Assembly: GCA_963664405.1 (NCBI GenBank)
Contig: OY761158.1
Location: forward strand, 899,020-963,019
DNA length: 64,000 nt
Origin: Thermoanaerobaculia bacterium
GTDB taxonomy: Bacteria > Acidobacteriota > Thermoanaerobaculia > Multivoradales > Multivoraceae
Direction of reading: 5' to 3'
How positions within the stretch are numbered: the first letter of the stretch is position 1; every line of letters begins with the position of its first letter. The position numbers and the translations under genes are program-made. A model generated the notes under the pieces. It did not search any database. It was not told where the DNA came from and saw only the letters and a list, made by a program, of their open reading frames with translations. Positions 2,548-11,842 of this stretch are shown piece after piece.

Positions 2548-3283
2548 TTGGGTACCGCGAGTGCGCGGACAGGCCGAAGGCCAAGGCGGCCATGCGAAGG
2601 ACACCTAGTGCTCGTCGTTATCAGTCTCTATATCGCCAGCGCGATCTCGCAGTTCCTCGAGTGGTGTGAGAGCCGGAAGCTCGAGCTCCACACGCTCGAG
2701 CCCATCATCATCGCCGCCTACATCGAGGAGCTCGGTCAACGGCGATCGCCGACGACTGTGAAGCAAAACCTCGCAGCCATTCGGATGCTCATGGACTATC
2801 TCGTGGTGGGTCAAGTGCTTCCCTTCAATCCGGCCGCCGCGGTGCGTGGGCCGAAGCACGTCGTCAAGGTCGGCAAGACCCCCGTTCTCTTCGAGGACGA
2901 TGCACGGAAGCTCTTCGAAGCAATCGACGCGTCGCACGTTGTTGGTCTGCGCGATCGCGCAATGATCGGCGTGATGATTTACTCCTTTGCTCGTGTCGGG
3001 GCCGTGGTGGCCATGCGCGTGAAGGACTACTACACCCAAGGACACCGAGCCTGGTTCGTGCTCCACGAAAAAGGTGGCCGCCATCATCGTGTGCCGGCAC
3101 ACCACAAGGCCGTCGAGTATCTCGATGCCTATGTTGAGGCCGCAGGTATCGCGAAGGAAGGTTCCTCGAAGCTCTTCCGTACCGCCCGCGGGAAAACGCG
3201 AGAGCTGACCGATCGAGGGATGACCCAAAGCGACGCGCTCCGCATGACGAAGCGTCGGGCCAAGCGGAACCTGTCAAGAACTT
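2548..3283 (+). pseudogene. Tyrosine recombinase/phage-type integrase, N-terminal and central portion, interrupted by an IS3-family insertion
   Basis: The translation has an N-terminal SAM-like core-binding region and the start of the catalytic domain (ARVGAVVAMRVKDY...HRVPAH). The usual C-terminal HxxR...Y segment is missing here and reappears after the IS at 4915..5128 in another frame. Confidence 0.8.
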
Positions 3284-3304
3284 TGAGACACCTTGAGTCA
3301 TAAA

Positions 3305-4309
3305 TTAGTGAAGGTCCTCTTCGGTCGAGGCCGGCGGATCCTCAGGCCGGTTGATATAAACGGTTCCAGGTAAAGGCGCGACGATGGGTCGCCCTCGGAG
3401 GAAGCGTTCTGGGTGAGTTTGGAAGGCGCCATCGAGCGCGACTTGCCGTGCGGCAAGGACCTGCTCCGCTCGACCGTGGTGGACGCCGTGCGGCGTCAGG
3501 TGGGCGATCCCACCGTGGCGGTGCTCGGTGTTGTACCAAGGGAAGAAGGTCCTGCAGAAAGCCTGGGCGGCCTCCTGGCTGGCGAATCGGGAGGGGAAGC
3601 TCGGGTGGTACTTGAGGGTCTTGAACTGGGCCTCGGAAAAGGGGTTGTCGTCACAGACCTGGGGCCGGCTGAGCGACTGAGTGAGTCCCAGATCGGCGAG
3701 CAGCTGAGCCGTGCACTTGGCGGTCATCGGGGAGCCCCGATCGCTGTGCAGGGTGAGCACCTCAGGTTTGACGTCGTGCTTGCAGCAGGTCTCCTCGATG
3801 AGGCGACCGGCGAGATTGGCGTTCTCGCGGGGCGCGAGCATCCAGCCGACGACGTAGCGGCTGAAGATGTCGAGCAGGACGTAGAGGTAGTAGTAGCTCC
3901 ACTTCTCAGGACCCCGCAATCGGGTGATATCCCAGGACCAGACTTGGTTGGGGGCGGCCGCCACCAGCTCCGGCTTGGTGTAGTCGGGGTGGCGAAGCTG
4001 GTTACGCCGTTCGCGCACCGGCGCTCGCGCAGCGAGGATGCGGTACATGGTCCTCTCCGAGCAGAGGTAGCGTTGCTCGTCCAGGAGCGTGGCGACGACC
4101 TCGGCGGGGGCACGGTCGACAAAGCGAGGCGAGTCCAGGACGCCCAGGACGGCTTGGCGCTCGTCCTCGCTCAGAGCCCGGGCAGGTGTTGGCCGGGGCT
4201 GCGGCCCGGTAGATGGCTTCCGACGACGGTACAGGGTCGCCCGTGCCACGCCGAGAGCGACACAGGACGGCTTGACGCCGACCTGCAGCGCCAATTCGGC
4301 TGCGGCCAT
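3305..4309 (-). CDS. IS3-family transposase OrfB (DDE integrase core domain)
   Basis: 334 aa with WSWDITRL...HSDRGSPMTAK...YNTEHRH..., the typical rve/DDE domain of IS3 OrfB. Its start overlaps the OrfA stop (TGATG). Confidence 0.9.
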   Translation of the reverse strand: MAAAELALQVGVKPSCVALGVARATLYRRRKPSTGPQPRPTPARALSEDERQAVLGVLDSPRFVDRAPAEVVATLLDEQRYLCSERTMYRILAARAPVRERRNQLRHPDYTKPELVAAAPNQVWSWDITRLRGPEKWSYYYLYVLLDIFSRYVVGWMLAPRENANLAGRLIEETCCKHDVKPEVLTLHSDRGSPMTAKCTAQLLADLGLTQSLSRPQVCDDNPFSEAQFKTLKYHPSFPSRFASQEAAQAFCRTFFPWYNTEHRHGGIAHLTPHGVHHGRAEQVLAARQVALDGAFQTHPERFLRGRPIVAPLPGTVYINRPEDPPASTEEDLH

Positions 4310-4863
4310 CAGGAGCTCCTCCCGTCCTCGAGGTTGAAGCCCAGCAGCCCGGCAACTTTTCCCTGCACTTCGAGGATCAGCTCTGCCTTGCGCAGCGCCT
4401 CGCGAGTACGGGATAGCTCCTTTTCCAGTTGCTCGACCTTCTTGGCCAGCGGATTGCCGGACTTCGCCTTGCGCCCTCGCCTTCGGCCCAGCCTTCGCAG
4501 AGCGCCGGTCCTGCGTGCCCTGCGCCAGGCCGTCAGGTGGGAGCTGTACAATCCCTCGCGACGCAGGATCGCGCCGATGTCGCCAGGCGTGGCCACTTCG
4601 ACTTCCTCGAGGATTCGCAGCTTGTACTCGGCCGTGAAGGTTCGCCGCGTTGGCTTGGCGACCACCTCAGGATCCAACACAGGGCTCGGCCGCGCCCAGA
4701 TGGCGCCCGCTGCTGCGTCTCCGTGCTCGCTACGCTCGCCCGTCGGCGCCTCCGCGGACCCCAGCTGGGCGCACGGGGGAAGCTGGGAAACCTCCTCCTC
4801 GCCCCGGACCGCAATGGACGTGCCTGCTGATCTCATCTCTTGCATCTTCCTCTCTTCAGACAT
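4309..4863 (-). CDS. IS3-family transposase OrfA (HTH plus leucine zipper)
   Basis: 184 aa with a basic coiled-coil C-terminus (KKVEQLEKELSRTREALRKAELILEVQ), typical of IS3 OrfA. OrfB starts in the -1 frame at its stop codon. Confidence 0.85.
   Translation of the reverse strand: MSEERKMQEMRSAGTSIAVRGEEEVSQLPPCAQLGSAEAPTGERSEHGDAAAGAIWARPSPVLDPEVVAKPTRRTFTAEYKLRILEEVEVATPGDIGAILRREGLYSSHLTAWRRARRTGALRRLGRRRGRKAKSGNPLAKKVEQLEKELSRTREALRKAELILEVQGKVAGLLGFNLEDGRSS
4347..4353 (-). other. Candidate -1 programmed ribosomal frameshift heptamer GGGAAAA (X XXY YYZ) near the end of IS3 orfA
   Basis: On the minus strand the orfA codons read cag gga aaa gtt. A -1 slip reads through into MAAAEL..., the OrfB start, giving an OrfAB fusion. 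Confidence 0.45.
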
Positions 4864-4914
4864 CAGGTTTCACCTCTCCGCCCTACTCTATTTAAGGGGT
4901 GGCGAGATGTCTCA

Positions 4915-5128
4915 AGCATCTTGGCAGAGAGGGAAGAGCGCAGGCTTGCCAACGTCGATCGGCAACCATACCTTTCGGGCGACGGGCATTACTGACTATC
5001 TCGCCAACGGCGGGACGTTGGAAACCGCCGCCCAGATCGCTGGCCACGCCTCAACGCGAACGACCCAGCTCTACAACCGCAATCCCGAACGCATCTCGCT
5101 CGCTGAAATCGAGCGCATCCGGATCTGA
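4915..5128 (+). pseudogene. Tyrosine recombinase C-terminal fragment (HxxR...Y catalytic tail) displaced by the IS3 insertion
   Basis: It is the tail of track ORF 3413..5128: ...NHTFRATGITDYLANGGTLETAAQIAGHASTRTTQLYNRN.... This is the canonical H-x-x-R ... catalytic Tyr box of tyrosine recombinases. Its frame differs from the N-terminal part at 2548..3283. Confidence 0.8.
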
Positions 5129-5136
5129 GAGGACGT

Positions 5137-5180
5137 GTCAGACTACCTCCAGGCCCGCCAACGAAACCCTACCCTTAGCG
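5137..5180 (+). repeat. 44-bp direct repeat copy A (att-like) immediately 3' of the recombinase
   Basis: gtcagactacctccaggcccgccaacgaaaccctacccttagcgg matches 6161-6205 with 2-3 mismatches. Confidence 0.7.
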
Positions 5181-5280
5181 GAACTCTCCCTAGGGATTGC
5201 TTGACTCTCCTTATAGGAGGCCGAAGCCGGCACCAATAGAGGTGAGGGCGGGACGCCCCCCAGAGGAGCAGTGAAATCGC

Positions 5281-6237
5281 ATGACAGACAATCGGCCCGA
5301 ACAGAGGGAGGGACGACCCTTTCACCACGGCGAGTCCCTACCCACGCAACTGACGGAAGAGACCCGTCGCGAGTTTTTCTGGAAGCTCTTTCTCGAGGCC
5401 GCTGAGCGATGTGTGCCCAAGTTCTTCGAGACATACACAACGGCAGTGATAGATCGAACGGAACCGCATAAGGCCCCGTTCGATTTTGAGTTTGCCGGGG
5501 CGATGTACATAAAAAGCGAGGGTGCCAACACGATAGTCGACCAGAAGGTGGTCGACGAGTACAAGTCTGCCCGGTCCCTTTCCGCAGAAGGGCTGATCAA
5601 GGGATGGCTCACCGAGTGGCGGATACAGCTCCGCCCCGAAGTGGAGGACGAGGTTCTGTCACTCTTCGTGAACCCTATCGTTCTCCCACCCCGGGTTCAG
5701 ACGTGGACCGACGTGACACAGGGGTGGACGAACGGCATCTGCAAGAAATATATTGATGACCAAAACGCCATAGTGGGCCATATGTGGTCGAACGGAGACG
5801 TGTGGTGGGCCGAAGACGAGAAGCAAGCACCGTTCCGCCCGTACAATCCCCTCAGAGTTACGCGCGAGGACTGGCTGGATCATGCACGAAAGTACTGCGA
5901 CCTCGTTGAGGCTGCCGCCCGCTGGTGGGGCAGTAGCGATACTTCGATGGGCTCTCGCCGAGAGCGTCATCTTGGTGGCGATCGGCTGACAGCCGAGCGG
6001 GACACAGCATGGTTGGTGCGACGTCTGCTTCTCGGGGAGTCGCCAGATCGGATCGCCAGGGTCTACGACGACGAGCTTGAGAAGGCGGGGGTGGATGATG
6101 ACGTTCAGCCGAAGGGCCGTATGGTGACGAAAGCCCTTCGGCGGACGGCCAAAACAATGGGAGTCAGACTTCCTCCGGGCCCGCCAACGAAACCCTACCC
6201 TTACCACTCCTTAGCCCTCCAAAGAGAAGAGGGGTGA
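5281..6237 (+). CDS. Hypothetical protein, 318 aa; low-GC cargo gene between the att-like direct repeats
   Basis: Long ORF with ATG start. Its composition is visibly AT-richer than the flanks. I recognised no conserved domain. Its 3' end is encoded by direct-repeat copy B. Confidence 0.6.
   Translation: MTDNRPEQREGRPFHHGESLPTQLTEETRREFFWKLFLEAAERCVPKFFETYTTAVIDRTEPHKAPFDFEFAGAMYIKSEGANTIVDQKVVDEYKSARSLSAEGLIKGWLTEWRIQLRPEVEDEVLSLFVNPIVLPPRVQTWTDVTQGWTNGICKKYIDDQNAIVGHMWSNGDVWWAEDEKQAPFRPYNPLRVTREDWLDHARKYCDLVEAAARWWGSSDTSMGSRRERHLGGDRLTAERDTAWLVRRLLLGESPDRIARVYDDELEKAGVDDDVQPKGRMVTKALRRTAKTMGVRLPPGPPTKPYPYHSLALQREEG
6161..6205 (+). repeat. 44-bp direct repeat copy B (att-like)
   Basis: gtcagacttcctccgggcccgccaacgaaaccctacccttaccac is the second copy of the 5137-5180 repeat. 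It overlaps the 3' end of the cargo CDS. Confidence 0.7.
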
Positions 6238-6243
6238 CGGCCG

Positions 6244-6363
6244 ATGCTAATTGAGATCCTGGGTCTCGCTATCGCTGCCGTTGGTGCGGCCGCCGCTGTG
6301 TATGCCGCATGGCGTACGCGAGACAAGGTGGAACCCACCGAGCATGATCAGAGTACTCAGTAA
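6244..6363 (+). CDS. Small 39-aa single-pass membrane peptide (MLIEILGLAIAAVGAAAAVYAAWRTRDKVEPTEHDQSTQ); candidate type I-toxin-like or holin-like peptide
   Basis: Not in the ORF track because it is under 60 aa. ATG lies 7-9 nt after a GAGGGG Shine-Dalgarno and is translationally coupled to the stop of 5281..6237. It has a hydrophobic helix followed by a charged tail. Confidence 0.35.
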   Translation: MLIEILGLAIAAVGAAAAVYAAWRTRDKVEPTEHDQSTQ

Positions 6364-6520
6364 ACAAGGAAACCCCCCGGCCTGCCTGTATGGACAGAGG
6401 GGCTCTCTCTTTGTATTCGTCCGCGATGCCGCGCCAGGAAAAGCCGAGAGTTCCTCTCTGTGACCCTTGAGCTGCGGTAGCAAGTGTCTCGTCATTCTGG
6501 CCGTCCGCCTATCCCCCCAC

Positions 6521-6548
6521 TTGACGAACTCTCGCGACCCGGTAGTAT
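6521..6548 (+). promoter_or_regulatory. Near-consensus sigma70-type promoter (TTGACG, 16-nt spacer, TAGTAT) upstream of the RHH antitoxin gene
   Basis: cacTTGACGaactctcgcgacccggTAGTATgg sits about 30 nt upstream of the ATG at 6579. Confidence 0.4.
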
Positions 6549-6578
6549 GGAGTCATACCAGCTAACACAATAGGTTCT

Positions 6579-6848
6579 ATGGAAATGGCTCACAAAAAAC
6601 TCTCCATCTCGCTACCCCCTGATCTCTATGAGCAGGCCGAGGCCGTGCGGAAGGCCGAGCACCGTACACGCTCAGAGCTCGTCCGAGAAGCGCTGCGCTC
6701 CTACATAGAGCGCTCCCGTCGCATTCCCGTGGTCGAACCCACCAGCCAAGAGGCGCGCATGTTCAAGGACGGCTGGAAGGCTTACAAGGCCAACGAGTAC
6801 GTGACACTCGAAGAGCTTCACAATGAGATGGCAGGTAGTCACAAATAG
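6579..6848 (+). CDS. Ribbon-helix-helix (CopG/ParD-like) antitoxin
   Basis: 89 aa. An N-terminal beta-strand then two helices (SISLPPDLYEQAEAVRKAEHRTRSELVREALRSYIE) is the classic RHH fold. It overlaps the downstream toxin gene by 26 nt. Confidence 0.8.
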   Translation: MEMAHKKLSISLPPDLYEQAEAVRKAEHRTRSELVREALRSYIERSRRIPVVEPTSQEARMFKDGWKAYKANEYVTLEELHNEMAGSHK

Positions 6849-7095
6849 GGCCGCCGTCAGAGACATCCGACGCCTCCCTACCCGAGCCCGCACCCGGATT
6901 CTTGAGGCCATCTCCGACATGGCCATCGATCCTTTCAGTGGAGACGTCGTTCGACTCAAGGGGCGCTCACCGCGTCTCGAATTTCGCCGTCGGGTTGGGT
7001 CGTGGCGCATCCTCTTCGGCGTCGACTACGATCAGACGACGGTCGTCGTCTTCAGAGTAGCTCGTCGCACAACACGCACCTACAAGAAATCATGA
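6823..7095 (+). CDS. RelE/ParE-family type II toxin
   Basis: 90 aa; ...RLKGRSPRLEFRRRVGSWRILFGVDYDQTTVVVFRVARR... matches the RelE/ParE core. Its stop overlaps the parA start (ATGA). Confidence 0.8.
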   Translation: MRWQVVTNRAAVRDIRRLPTRARTRILEAISDMAIDPFSGDVVRLKGRSPRLEFRRRVGSWRILFGVDYDQTTVVVFRVARRTTRTYKKS

Positions 7096-7589
7096 CCACC
7101 ACCCTCGCCATCGTGAACCAAAAAGGAGGTGTCGGAAAGACGACGAGTACGATCAACCTCGCCTATGCCCTCGCTCAGCAGGGCAAGCGCGTTTTGATGG
7201 TGGACACTGACCCGCAAGCGAGCCTGACGAAGTACGCAGGCTATGAGCCCGACGAGCTCGAGCTCGCCGGCACGACGCTCTATCACGGCCTCACGACGCG
7301 GAAGGCGCTACGGAAGCTCATCCTCAAGAACGAGAGCGTGGACCCACATCTTCTGGCTGCAAGCAAGAACCATCACCATGACATTGGTGCTGCCGCCAAA
7401 AAGCGCGGCAACATCATGCTCCGCGATGCCCTGGCCAAGATCAAAGACGACTACGACTTTGTCCTCATTGACTCACCGCCCTGGCTCGGTAAGGTAACAG
7501 GACCAGCGGGGCCATTTGAACGAAAACCTACCGGTTTCGGTGCCGGTCCGACAGTCAGAGCCGTAGGATTCGGTAGGAGAATCACCTAA
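7092..7589 (+). pseudogene. parA: ParA/Soj-family partition ATPase, C-terminally truncated; the tail is encoded by the Tn3 inverted repeat
   Basis: MTTTLAIVNQKGGVGKTTSTINLAYALA... shows Walker A and continues through DYDFVLIDSPPWLG. The reading frame then runs into the Tn3-family IR (7508..7545) and ends after 27 unrelated residues. About 110 C-terminal residues of a normal ParA are absent. Confidence 0.75.
7508..7545 (+). repeat. Tn3-family terminal inverted repeat (left)
   Basis: See the mobile_element entry. The outer GGGG is at 7508. Confidence 0.75.
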
Positions 7590-9379
7590 TTGTCGCCCTC
7601 GATGAAGTACGTGCCGTTGGGCATGACGTGCTTGAACGGTAGCAGCGAGATGTGCGACAGATCCTCGTCGTCGATCGCCTCGCCCTCGGCTCGAAGCCGG
7701 TCGACGATCTCGCCGATCCGGACCGTGTTCCAGTACAGGATCGCGTTTGAGACGAGGCTCAGACAACTCGCCTTGTTCATGATCTCGACGTAGTCGCCGG
7801 TCGTGAACTCGCCTTGGTCGGCGAAGAAGATCCAGCGCGACAGCTTCTGTCGGTACTCTCCCTTGTTGAGCTGCTTCTGGACCGTCCGGCGCAGCTCTCG
7901 ATCGGTGAAGTATCGAAGGACGTAGTTCGTCTTCACCATGCGGCCGAGGCTGCGGACCGCCTTCGACAACCGATCGTGAGGAGACCCGCTAGTGAGGCGC
8001 TGTACGACCACGTTCGCTGGAGCCGTCCTCAGTTTGAGAGACCACGCGACCCGCATCATTGGATCCCACTGCTCCTCGATCAAGTCGAGGTCAACCGTCT
8101 TCCTCAGTAGAGGAGCGAACGCTCCTTCAGCCGAGGACCTCGATGGTCGATAGAGTTGCTGGCTCTTGAGGTTCTTGATCCGCGGCATGAAGTAGTACCC
8201 AGCAGGTAGCACAGAGCGAAGACGATCTCGGTGTAGCCATCCGTGTCGGTTGTATGTTCTCGGAGCCGGAGAATCGTGTTGTTATCGAGGAGACCGTCCA
8301 GGACGTAGAGCGCCTCCCGAGGACCACACGAGATCGCTCGCGTGCTGAAGACCGCGAACTGGTCGGAAACGTGCGTGTACAGGCTGATCCCTTTGTCGTA
8401 GTACCCGAAGTATCGGGGGTAGTACGACGCGAGGAGGCTGGCCGCACGGATCTTGAACCGCTGACCATCAGATGACGACGTCTGGCCATCGCCGTGGATG
8501 GCGCTCAGCGGTAGAGCGTGGTGAGCGTTGACGATGGCCGCGTTTGCATCATTCAGAGTCTCCTCCCGGATGTAGTAGTGGAGAACGTAGCGGAGCATGT
8601 CCAGAGTGACGCCGGTAACACTCGCGCTCATGGAAACGACGCCGAGGTTCGTTGCCTGGGAGATGATCGCTGCTAGCAGCGATTTGTAGAACTCCTCCGG
8701 CCTCGAGCGGTGTTGTTGTACCGGCAGGAAGCTCTGAGTAAAGCGGGTCGATCGATCGACATCCATGAGGAGCTGCTCGACCCGAACCAGCGGCAAGCTG
8801 GCGTTGATCATCTTCTGCAGTCGGCTCTCCGGCGGCTTCTTCTTGTCGTCTCGACGGAGCTTCAGCCTTCCTTGGTCGACCCGAGCGAATCGGTCCTGGC
8901 CATATCGACTGCCGGCTCGCCGGTTCCCGTCCTGAAACTCGTCGACAAGTCTCGGCCGCACCTCGGTAGGTTGGGGCTGCTCGAGGTCGGCAAATGAATC
9001 CGCCTTCGAATCCTCCCACCGATCGTCCGAGAGAAGGAGGTCCCAGAACGCAACGTGCTGTTTGCTCTCGGGGATGAATAGGTCCCCCGAGCGAAACGCG
9101 TCCCGGAGCGCCAGAGCCAGTCCGGTTTCCCAAGCGTTGCGATTGAGTGAGCCCGGCTCTTCTCCGGGAAGCACCGAGCGCAGGTCGCTCGCGACGAAGC
9201 CAGTCGGCGCGTCCGCGGGAAGGCTCTTGAGGGAGTCGCTCGAGTTCGTTCCCGGTCAACGACCAATCTCGGACAAGCTCGTCATCGGAAAGGCGCTCGG
9301 GTAGTGCAACCGCGTGGCGTCGCTGGCGGCCCGAGAGAAAGCGTTCCGGAGGAGGACGGTTTTCACTGATGCCGATCAC
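7586..9379 (-). pseudogene. tnpA: Tn3-family transposase TnpA remnant in three frames (9379-9260 N-terminus, 9174-8104 DDE region, 8212-7586 C-terminus); about 400 internal residues deleted
   Basis: Track ORFs 8549..9379, 8104..9174 and 7586..8212 hold, in order: the TnpA N-terminal motif (LSDDELVRDWSLT), the central DDE region (SSDGQRFKIRA...YFGYYDKGISLYTHVSDQFAVF...YVLDGLL...EHTTDTDGYTEIVFALCYLLG), and the C-terminal region (QLNKGEYRQKLSRWIFFADQGEF...LYWNTV...LSHISLLPFKHV). Total length is about 600 aa versus about 1000 for an intact TnpA. Confidence 0.8.
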
Positions 9380-9608
9380 CCCCTGGATTGTTCAGAGCAG
9401 TCCTCGTTCGTGGCGCCTCATGAGAGCGGTGACCGGGACGCGTAGTGCCTGATACTCAGGAGCCAGAGGGCTCGGGTGCGGTTTCAAGGTCGGACTACAC
9501 TAGCCCAACACGCTCTTCGTGAAGCTAGATAACGAACACGATAGGCGAAGAACGCGGAACCGTACCAAGGGCTGGGCAACTGGGACCGACCAACTGGCCA
9601 CTACCTCC

Positions 9609-9646
9609 GAGCGACCGGAACCGTAAGTTTTCGTTCAAATGCCCCC
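9609..9646 (-). repeat. Tn3-family terminal inverted repeat (right)
   Basis: Reverse complement of 9609-9646 matches IR-L at about 85%. Confidence 0.75.
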
Positions 9647-9653
9647 GCAGATC

Positions 9654-9815
9654 CATCCTGCGGAAGATCAGTATCACTTCCTCCGGATGCGGAATATGGC
9701 GCCGAGGACGGCGCATCCTGCGGAAGTGATCGGTATCACTTCCTTCGGATGCGGAATATGGCGCCGAGGACGGCGCACTTGGGCGTTGCTTCCTATCCGC
9801 TCCGGGGAACGGCAC
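9654..9815 (+). repeat. Tandem 62-64-bp repeat units; each unit holds a palindrome (GAAGTGAT-CGGT-ATCACTTC) plus the GC hairpin GGCGCCGAGGACGGCGC; member of a dispersed repeat family
   Basis: Two tandem copies of catcctgcggaag(tg)atc(g)gtatcacttcc(t)tcggatgcggaatatggcgccgaggacggcg, then cacttgggcgttgcttcctatccgctccggggaacgg. The same modules recur at 21016-21062 and 58281-58720. Confidence 0.6.
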
Positions 9816-11053: not shown

Positions 11054-11842
11054 ATGAGCTACGAACGGATCAAGCTCGAGTTCGAAGGAAACGTCGCCGT
11101 CCTGCGCTTCAATCATCCGGAGGTCCTGAACGCCATTGGCGCCCAGATGGTCGGTGAGATTGCCGACGCCATTGCAGAAATCGAGGACCCCAGCAACGGC
11201 GCGCGCTGTCTGCTGATCACCGGCGAGGGAAGAGCCTTCTGCTCCGGCGCGAACCTGGCGGATAGCGGTCGAGAGCAGCGGTCCGGGGGAGCGAGAGGGA
11301 TGCTGCGCGGCAACTATCATCCCATTCTGTGCGCCTTGCGGGACCTCGAGATGCCCATCGTCAGCGCCGTCCACGGGGCGGCGGCCGGAGTCGGGATGAG
11401 CTTCGCGATCATGGCCGACATCGTTTGCGCCTCGAAGGAAGGTTACTTCCTGCAAGCCTTCGCCAGGATCGGGTTGGTTCCCGACGGCGGCGCCACCTTT
11501 CTGCTGCCGCGGCTCGTCGGATGGGGCCGAGCCGCCGAGCTGGCGTTGTTGGCGGAGAAGCTGCCGGCGGAGAAGGCGCTGGAGTGGGGATTGGTGAATC
11601 GACTCTACGACGACCAGGAGAGCTTGATGGAGGGGGCGATGGAAATGGCTCAGAGATTGGCGAACGGGCCGCGGTCCCTGGCGCTGATCCGCAGGGCCTT
11701 ATGGGCCACCTGGCAGCACGCCTACGAACAGCAGTTGGATCTGGAGGCCCGCCTCCAAGGTGAGGCCTCACGGAGCGAAGACGCCCGCGAAGGCGGGCTC
11801 GCCTTCCTTGAAAAGCGGAAGCCGGACTTCAAGGGCAGGTAG
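11054..11842 (+). CDS. Enoyl-CoA hydratase/isomerase (crotonase) family protein
   Basis: MSYERIKLEFEGNVAVLRFNHPEVLNA...ITGEGRAFCSGANL...VHGAAAGVGMSFA... is the crotonase fold signature. GGGAGG Shine-Dalgarno lies upstream. Confidence 0.85.
   Translation: MSYERIKLEFEGNVAVLRFNHPEVLNAIGAQMVGEIADAIAEIEDPSNGARCLLITGEGRAFCSGANLADSGREQRSGGARGMLRGNYHPILCALRDLEMPIVSAVHGAAAGVGMSFAIMADIVCASKEGYFLQAFARIGLVPDGGATFLLPRLVGWGRAAELALLAEKLPAEKALEWGLVNRLYDDQESLMEGAMEMAQRLANGPRSLALIRRALWATWQHAYEQQLDLEARLQGEASRSEDAREGGLAFLEKRKPDFKGR

Follow-up and report, generated by a model that had tools for sequence, protein, structure and literature searches.

A 41-nt direct repeat around a rare single gene beside a recombinase pseudogene in a Thermoanaerobaculia bacterium: possible att-type junctions of an old insertion

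We identified a pair of 41-nt direct repeats (R1 and R2) that bracket a single gene of a very rare protein family, orf318, next to a plasmid-type tyrosine recombinase pseudogene in a Thermoanaerobaculia bacterium. The DNA analysed comprises 64,000 nucleotides of contig OY761158.1 (positions 899,020 to 963,019), hereafter the window, and all coordinates refer to it. Tentatively, and at a little less than an even chance, we interpret R1 and R2 as a pair of att-type junctions that originated from the insertion of a 1,026-bp single-gene remnant. The initial annotation of the window had suggested a minimal integrated cassette or a tandem att duplication at this position. This is still the best single explanation, but neither an empty site nor a third repeat copy nor a circular junction was found. 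The surrounding locus is a mosaic of plasmid-derived and transposable sequences that has decayed and is specific to the strain.

The upstream copy R1 (5137..5177, plus strand) is non-coding at present, and the downstream copy R2 (6163..6203, plus strand) encodes residues V295-P307 of orf318. The repeat search revealed a direct repeat of 41 nt with 39/41 identical positions, including a 26-nt core (GGCCCGCCAACGAAACCCTACCCTTA) that is identical in both copies. The two mismatches are in agreement with the initial annotation, while the length of 44 bp given there has to be corrected to 41 nt. Core copies with ≤3 mismatches occur twice in the 64 kb, compared to 0.00 expected from 100 shuffles, and no third copy of R is present in the window even at ≤14/41 mismatches. 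The core pattern was not detected elsewhere in three public collections of genome, metagenome and viral contigs. According to gapped alignment the likeness of R1 and R2 begins and stops abruptly, without extension when gaps are allowed. As annotated previously, the repeats flank a single 318-aa ORF, orf318 (5281..6237, plus strand), which is the sole ORF bracketed by them, and R1 starts just past the recombinase gene, 8 nt after its stop codon (5126-5128). As DNA, the two repeat regions fold no more stably than shuffled sequences (z -0.19 and +1.01) and therefore a hairpin element of the attC or REP type can be ruled out. No obvious dyad of recombinase-binding sites is visible in R, which counts against att-type junctions, and no tRNA, tmRNA or Rfam target for an att site exists in the window. 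The spacer between R1 and the start of orf318 (5178..5280, plus strand, 103 nt) carries a 10-bp palindrome (TCCCTAGGGA), and the promoter scan found no sigma-70-like promoter in it.

R2 comprises codons 295-307 together with 2 nt of codon 308. As the gene continues for another 11 codons outside the repeat, R2 does not represent the last 15 codons of the gene as stated in the initial annotation. The C-termini of the only two homologues, ...LPQGRPT and ...SRGPTRNQT (each directly followed by the stop), align with ...LPPGPPTKPYP of orf318, and G300, P302 and T303 are invariant in the family alignment. Since the ends of the homologues align with the residues encoded by R2, this repeat is native to orf318. 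R1, translated in the orf318 frame, gives VRLPPGPPTKPYP and then a TAG stop. This end resembles those of the family and comes 4 residues behind the conserved PT. Behind R2, orf318 runs for 11 codons (YHSLALQREEG) into unrelated DNA that has no counterpart elsewhere. The identity of both repeats ends inside the stop codon, between its second and third base (TA-G in R1, TA-C in R2). Both mismatches (CTA/CTT and CCA/CCG) are synonymous third-position changes, for which we estimate a chance probability of about one in ten, with n=2 differences only.

Because of its two homologues, one of them near full-length, we consider orf318 a real gene of a very rare family. Only P0006 and P0007 were identified when 1.84 billion representative proteins were searched exhaustively with HMMER. 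The likeness of P0006 (301 aa) covers almost the entire protein (BLASTP 9e-28, with 29% identity in residues 33-301), and that of P0007 (114 aa) is limited to the C-terminal domain of orf318. Word-indexed searches returned the query or P0007 only and no further family members. The family was not detected in metagenome and viral locus scans, tblastn gave no match on plasmids or phages, and an exact-protein look-up of orf318, orf124 and a 39-aa peptide encoded downstream of orf318 yielded no record. The N-terminal domain of orf318 is uncharacterised. The full-length AlphaFold model was unusable (pLDDT 37.5) and the C-terminal domain alone could be modelled usably, as a putative helix-turn-helix fold that may resemble sigma region 4, LuxR or DeoR-SorC proteins; a PDB sequence-profile search with the C-terminal alignment gave nothing below E 0.4.

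On its contig (L002), the P0006 gene begins within the terminal codons of a gene for a P4-type integrase (Phage_int_M and Phage_integrase), and a gene for an HTH_17 protein follows after 94 nt. An HTH_17 gene is also located 100 nt after the P0007 gene (L003). From these neighbourhoods it follows that the orf318 family belongs to integrase-X-excisionase modules. No HTH_17 gene, even a degenerate one, is present in the window, and thus the gene order shared with the homologues is interrupted precisely where R2 ends on its right side. The gene end of P0006 is not repeated elsewhere in L002. We infer that orf318 acts in integrase/excisionase modules as an accessory or regulatory protein that binds DNA, and is not cargo. 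Together with its homologues it looks like a tiny, so far uncharacterised family of predicted HTH proteins that travels with such modules.

The DNA to the right of R2 is an orphan segment of 311 nt (6204..6514, plus strand) that comprises the 11-codon extension of orf318 and the 39-aa ORF (6244-6363, plus strand). No counterpart of this segment exists beside the orf318 homologues or the toxin-antitoxin (TA) modules of three metagenome contigs (L019-L021) described below. The 39-aa ORF and the GAGGGG upstream of it are present as annotated previously; it is doubtful and probably no gene. With 0.55, its GC3 falls below its GC1 (0.70), unlike in every real gene checked here. The ORF is absent beside both orf318 homologues and upstream of the three related TA modules, and its product forms a singleton cluster in the protein collection and has a single Pfam match, DUF7322, with 15.2 bits versus a cut-off of 27. 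A helix rich in Ala, Gly, Val and Leu is a common chance product of GC-rich non-coding DNA. The suggestion of a type I toxin-like or holin-like peptide is not supported, in view of the GC values and of the absence of the ORF from these five places. Neither P0006 nor P0007 co-occurs with such a peptide, and the lack of conservation in relatives, which the initial annotation had named as a refuting outcome, thus applies to the ORF as far as these relatives show. Two overlapping ORFs at 6247-6495 (minus strand) and 6251-6463 (plus strand) were rejected as not protein-like.

The initial annotation had missed that the recombinase gene upstream of R1 is broken and that the block as a whole has decayed: the gene is a pseudogene that is split by an IS3-family insertion sequence and has lost its N-terminus. 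Its N-terminal part (2548..3270, plus strand, Phage_integrase 1.9e-9) shares 47-60% identity with residues about 47-283 of full-length relatives (320-354 aa). Since these relatives align from their residue 47-83 onward only, the initial 45-60 codons must have been deleted or are no longer in frame. The insertion sequence (about 3271..4927, minus strand) was recognized by 23-nt terminal inverted repeats (3271-3293 and 4905-4927) and by its transposase domains, HTH_Tnp_1 in orfA and rve (7.5e-22) plus rve_3 in orfB. The C-terminal catalytic part of the recombinase (4928..5128, plus strand) shows 54-70% identity to the last 67 residues of the relatives and has a native-looking stop behind the shared end ...ERIRI. 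To the left of the recombinase, a large minus-strand gene at 1-2375 was judged by eye to encode a putative TonB-dependent receptor.

On the other side of the orphan segment, a maintenance module (6515..7497, plus strand) was identified by Pfam matches and the promoter scan. It starts with a promoter-like site (TTGACG-16-TAGTAT, 6521-6548, plus strand, 9/12), which agrees with the promoter annotated before the TA pair. The genes for an RHH antitoxin (6579-6848, plus strand; RHH_1, 35.6 bits versus a cut-off of 20.5) and a ParE-type toxin (6823-7095, plus strand; ParE_toxin, 26.6 bits versus 23) overlap, and the parE stop codon overlaps the start of parA. Both families are above cut-off, and the pair is a type II toxin-antitoxin system, as the initial annotation had stated. 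The parA gene (7092-7497, plus strand) is truncated by a Tn3-family transposon remnant (7500..9654, minus strand) that forms the right edge of the island, with 32-nt terminal inverted repeats (7500-7531 and 9623-9654) and DDE_Tnp_Tn3 (4.6e-63) across fragmented ORFs. With the recombinase gene split and lacking its N-terminus and parA cut, the locus is now inert. A GC background of 65-70% and a clearly AT-richer cargo gene were not confirmed: the window has 62.7% GC and orf318 58.8%. This is the same range as for the island neighbours (57-61%; RHH 57.4, ParE 59.0, ParA 58.5, Tn3 fragments 59-60) and therefore orf318 is not compositionally distinct from the island.

Comparison with related genomes shows that the entire block is specific to the strain and lies in a zone of genome plasticity. 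In the closest relative (L016, same species, 95-97% identical), collinearity with the window extends from 23507 down to 9787 and is followed by complete divergence. In another relative (L017/L001) the divergence starts already at 11768, where a different integrase island sits. L016 lacks the entire R1-orf318-R2 region and hence provides no empty site, which counts against att-type junctions. The 3' DNA of the recombinase gene has counterparts in the recombinase genes of 99 plasmids, with the likeness stopping at the stop codon. On Komagataeibacter pGX3 the gene order is Doc-CopG-int-parA-parB-repA, on a Methylobacterium plasmid int is followed by repABC, and on a Sphingobium plasmid int is followed by 3.4 kb of accessory genes including a TA pair and then parA. 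Due to these varied contexts downstream of int, the position occupied here can be regarded as a variable insertion spot. The RHH-ParE-parA module is kept as a unit together with its promoter (76-80% identity) in the metagenome contigs L019, L020 and L021, and in L019 it runs on into a full parA-parB. In all three contigs the likeness to the window begins only at 6515-6541. From the likenesses of the recombinase and the TA-parA genes we conclude that the window holds a plasmid-type maintenance block, and the foreign pieces between int and the TA-par operon are the R1-orf318-R2 unit and the 311-nt segment 6204-6514. None of eight related recombinase genes is followed by a comparable repeat (0/8), a further point against att-type junctions.

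Direct repeats with a shared core flank the orf318 segment at both ends, as a pair of attL and attR would, and the core overlaps and reconstitutes the 3' end of the orf318-family gene. We therefore propose that R1 and R2 are attL/attR-type junctions of a site-specific insertion of the tyrosine-recombinase type, putatively catalysed by the recombinase of the window or a relative. The inserted unit would have been a 1,026-bp circle of R, the 103-nt spacer and the orf318 body, with orf318 as its only gene, and probably represents what was left of an integrative element after CIME-like decay. The attachment core would coincide with the last 13 codons of the orf318-family gene, and the target would have been a matching core 8 nt after the stop of the plasmid-type recombinase gene and ahead of the TA/parA operon. 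A single reciprocal recombination could account for both junctions, and in the circular form orf318 would regain a family-like stop. CIMEs, which keep their att sites and have lost the integrase, and tandem accretion are documented for integrative elements (PMC5704250). We favour this interpretation since the repeat is non-random, unique, sharply bounded and abuts a tyrosine recombinase gene, since it is the native 3' end of the bracketed gene with an identity that ends in the stop codon, as fits a core that copies a gene end, and since the gene order of the homologues is lost right at the outer border of R2. The family-like stop of R1, the synonymous mismatches and the variable insertion spot point in the same direction. 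A candidate for the cognate recombinase is encoded at one end, by the pseudogene that terminates 8 nt ahead of R1 and is not enclosed by the repeats. Several observations speak against att-type junctions in addition to those mentioned above. No integrase gene is located between R1 and R2, and the integrase beside P0006 is P4-type and belongs to another subfamily than the recombinase of the window. An empty site (attB), for which the initial annotation had proposed a search in related genomes, is absent from genome, metagenome and viral contigs; this may be due to thin sampling of the lineage.

Among the other explanations, the most serious is that R1 represents the last 41 nt and the native stop of a second copy of orf318, tandem or allelic and arranged head to tail. 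The body of the upstream copy would then have been deleted, or displaced on arrival of a recombinase-bearing element, and the 103-nt spacer would be the native intergenic gap. The conserved frame of R1, its family-like stop and the exclusively synonymous differences fit equally well to a former gene copy, and an identity that ends at the stop codon is also typical of paralogues with diverged flanks. The region clearly underwent deletions and insertions, and the spacer resembles the 94-100 nt that follow the stop codons of the homologues. Nevertheless, at least three events would be required, more than for att-type junctions. The deletion must have ended 8 nt after an intact recombinase stop codon, and the different right flank of R2 needs a separate rearrangement. 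Moreover, tblastn revealed no other orf318-like sequence in the window, and the downstream neighbour of both homologues is an HTH_17 gene and not a paralogue. A second copy is a real possibility, but the less probable one. It is unlikely that R is the own resolution site of the plasmid recombinase, duplicated by a fusion of replicons or modules, with orf318 as an exchangeable Xer/pdif-like module. The recombinase family is indeed plasmid-borne and adjoins par/rep genes, and R is found 8 nt past the recombinase stop, where the int-parA intergenic region would be expected. However, R is not kept downstream of any of the eight relatives, it is the coding end of orf318 and not a generic intergenic site, and it has neither a dyad of the 11-6-11 type nor inverted binding sites nor a significant fold. 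Xer/pdif modules possess 28-bp sites with such an 11-6-11 dyad, which are usually inverted. We rejected a module of this kind for the locus, with its direct repeats of 41 nt and no visible dyad.

The initial annotation had suggested that orf318 and the 39-aa peptide together make up a hitherto undescribed cassette for defence or abortive infection, in which the peptide would be a membrane protein of the toxin or holin kind. This appears quite improbable. The peptide would form one hydrophobic helix with a charged tail, and both sequences are unannotated and located beside a TA module in a strain-specific island. As stated in that annotation, neither protein has a recognizable domain, since no Pfam, NCBIfam, PHROG or PADLOC match was above cut-off. 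PADLOC gave no match at E≤1 for orf318, P0006, P0007 or the peptide, though, and the homologues of orf318 are found in int-X-xis modules without such a peptide. The peptide is missing from the three related TA modules, its GC3 of 0.55 is atypical of local coding sequence, and the putative HTH-like C-terminus of orf318 points away from defence cargo as well. A DGR-like pair, with R1 as template repeat and R2 as variable repeat at the 3' end of a gene, can be practically dismissed. It would be in line with the variable copy at the C-terminus of an ORF and with two mismatches in which an A of R1 is replaced by T or G in R2. Yet only 2/11 adenines differ, both synonymously, the repeat is much shorter than typical template repeats, and all neighbours were assigned to other families, none of them a reverse transcriptase. 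DGR fails because no reverse transcriptase is present: the only YxDD motif found by the motif scan is YIDD inside orf318, and it is not conserved in P0006.

Of the known systems, the CIMEs and the accretion of the ICESt1 type (PMC5704250) share several features with the proposed att-type junctions, namely a short integrase-less segment with direct att-type repeats, a core formed by the 3' end of a gene and a location within a decayed composite island, adjacent to the gene for a tyrosine recombinase. They differ in that the unit described here has only 1,026 bp and one gene, and that its core is the bracketed gene's own 3' end and does not stem from a target in the chromosome, for example a tRNA gene or fda. 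Furthermore, the recombinase is located outside the repeats and is plasmid-type, no attB is known and mobility is putative. Integron cassettes (IntI, attI, attC) likewise consist of a single ORF with a recombination site at its own 3' end beside a tyrosine recombinase, and a circular single-gene intermediate is implied in both cases. In contrast to integrons, no attC-like imperfect palindrome or hairpin is present, the site is downstream of the recombinase gene and co-directional instead of upstream and divergent, and the repeat has 41 bp compared to a 7-bp core site. An integron cassette was therefore rejected, with no hairpin and with 38.1 bits for the Xer/integron-integrase model versus a cut-off of 220.

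The recombinase side of the locus resembles the pGX3-type plasmid maintenance blocks with a CopG-linked recombinase by parA/repABC. The recombinase is of the same family and has the same orientation and the same position upstream of a partition operon, and TA modules are found in the same neighbourhood. Unlike these blocks, the one in the window is located on the chromosome, has lost both of its ends and has been invaded by insertion elements, and the orf318 unit lies between the recombinase gene and the TA-parA operon. The orf318 side is comparable to P4-type integrase-X-AlpA/Xis (HTH_17) modules, since P0006 is encoded between a P4-type integrase and an HTH_17 gene and P0007 is also followed by HTH_17, but the window has no HTH_17 partner and its upstream recombinase belongs to another subfamily. 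One could also imagine a single-gene cassette system different from integrons, in which a plasmid-type tyrosine recombinase with an att site just past its own stop would capture and release one-gene circles of ~1 kb. The last 13 codons would serve as the core, the stop would be restored in the circle only and the HTH protein may direct the reaction. We consider such a system rather improbable.

The locus does not establish a new class of system: the recombinase gene is defunct, the presumed cargo resembles element housekeeping and not defence, and the 39-aa ORF is in all probability no gene. The main value of our analysis is negative, because ordinary decay of mobile elements accounts for most of what had been put forward as undescribed. 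If R1 and R2 are indeed att-type junctions, the orf318 unit would be a further example of how remnants of integrative elements accumulate and degenerate next to recombinase genes in regions that vary between strains.

The promoter, RHH antitoxin gene, parE and parA, in places followed by parB, travel as a single conserved module, found in the window at 6515-7497 and, at 76-80% identity, in the metagenome contigs L019 (1707-2698), L020 and L021, with upstream neighbours that differ from contig to contig. The stop codon of parE overlaps the start of parA, and therefore the toxin-antitoxin pair is fused into the partition operon. In the window, parA is truncated by a Tn3-family remnant of ~2.15 kb (7500-9654) with a fragmented transposase and 32-nt inverted repeats that are 88% complementary. 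The remnant directly adjoins conserved chromosome and thus constitutes the island's right edge. L021, with an 84%-identical homologue of the RHH antitoxin, shares the ENA sample ERZ23498356 with L003, the contig encoding P0007, a homologue of the C-terminal domain of orf318. A relative of the mobile block of the window may be present in this metagenome.

The recombinase gene is interrupted in its catalytic half by an IS3-family element (3271-4927), which carries orfA and orfB on the minus strand and 23-nt terminal inverted repeats and looks complete. The long ORF that spans this element on the plus strand (3413-5128) is a shadow ORF. Directly 3' of a related recombinase gene on contig L005 lies an ORF of 60-nt tandem repeats (6170-6740; repeating ...LADPFGLNKMLAAQRQQFER...). 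In the spacer downstream of the repeat R1, positions 5178-5215 include two symmetric sequences: the perfect palindrome TCCCTAGGGA, of 10 bp, and an inverted repeat, CTCCT-TAT-AGGAG. Both could be operator or binding sites; neither occurs downstream of the second repeat, R2.

At 9666-9777 a 62-nt unit occurs twice in tandem (50 nt at 96% identity), and the pair folds as a strong hairpin (-58.8 kcal/mol, z -2.44). This element is also present in the same-species relative L016, but at a different locus (7881-8026), one at which the window lacks it. This recurrence at another locus points to a dispersed intergenic repeat that is small and may be mobile. The window diverges from L016 at 9787 and from another relative, L017/L001, at 11768, where the latter has a different Phage_integrase fragment. 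The island is set in a plasticity zone of the chromosome.
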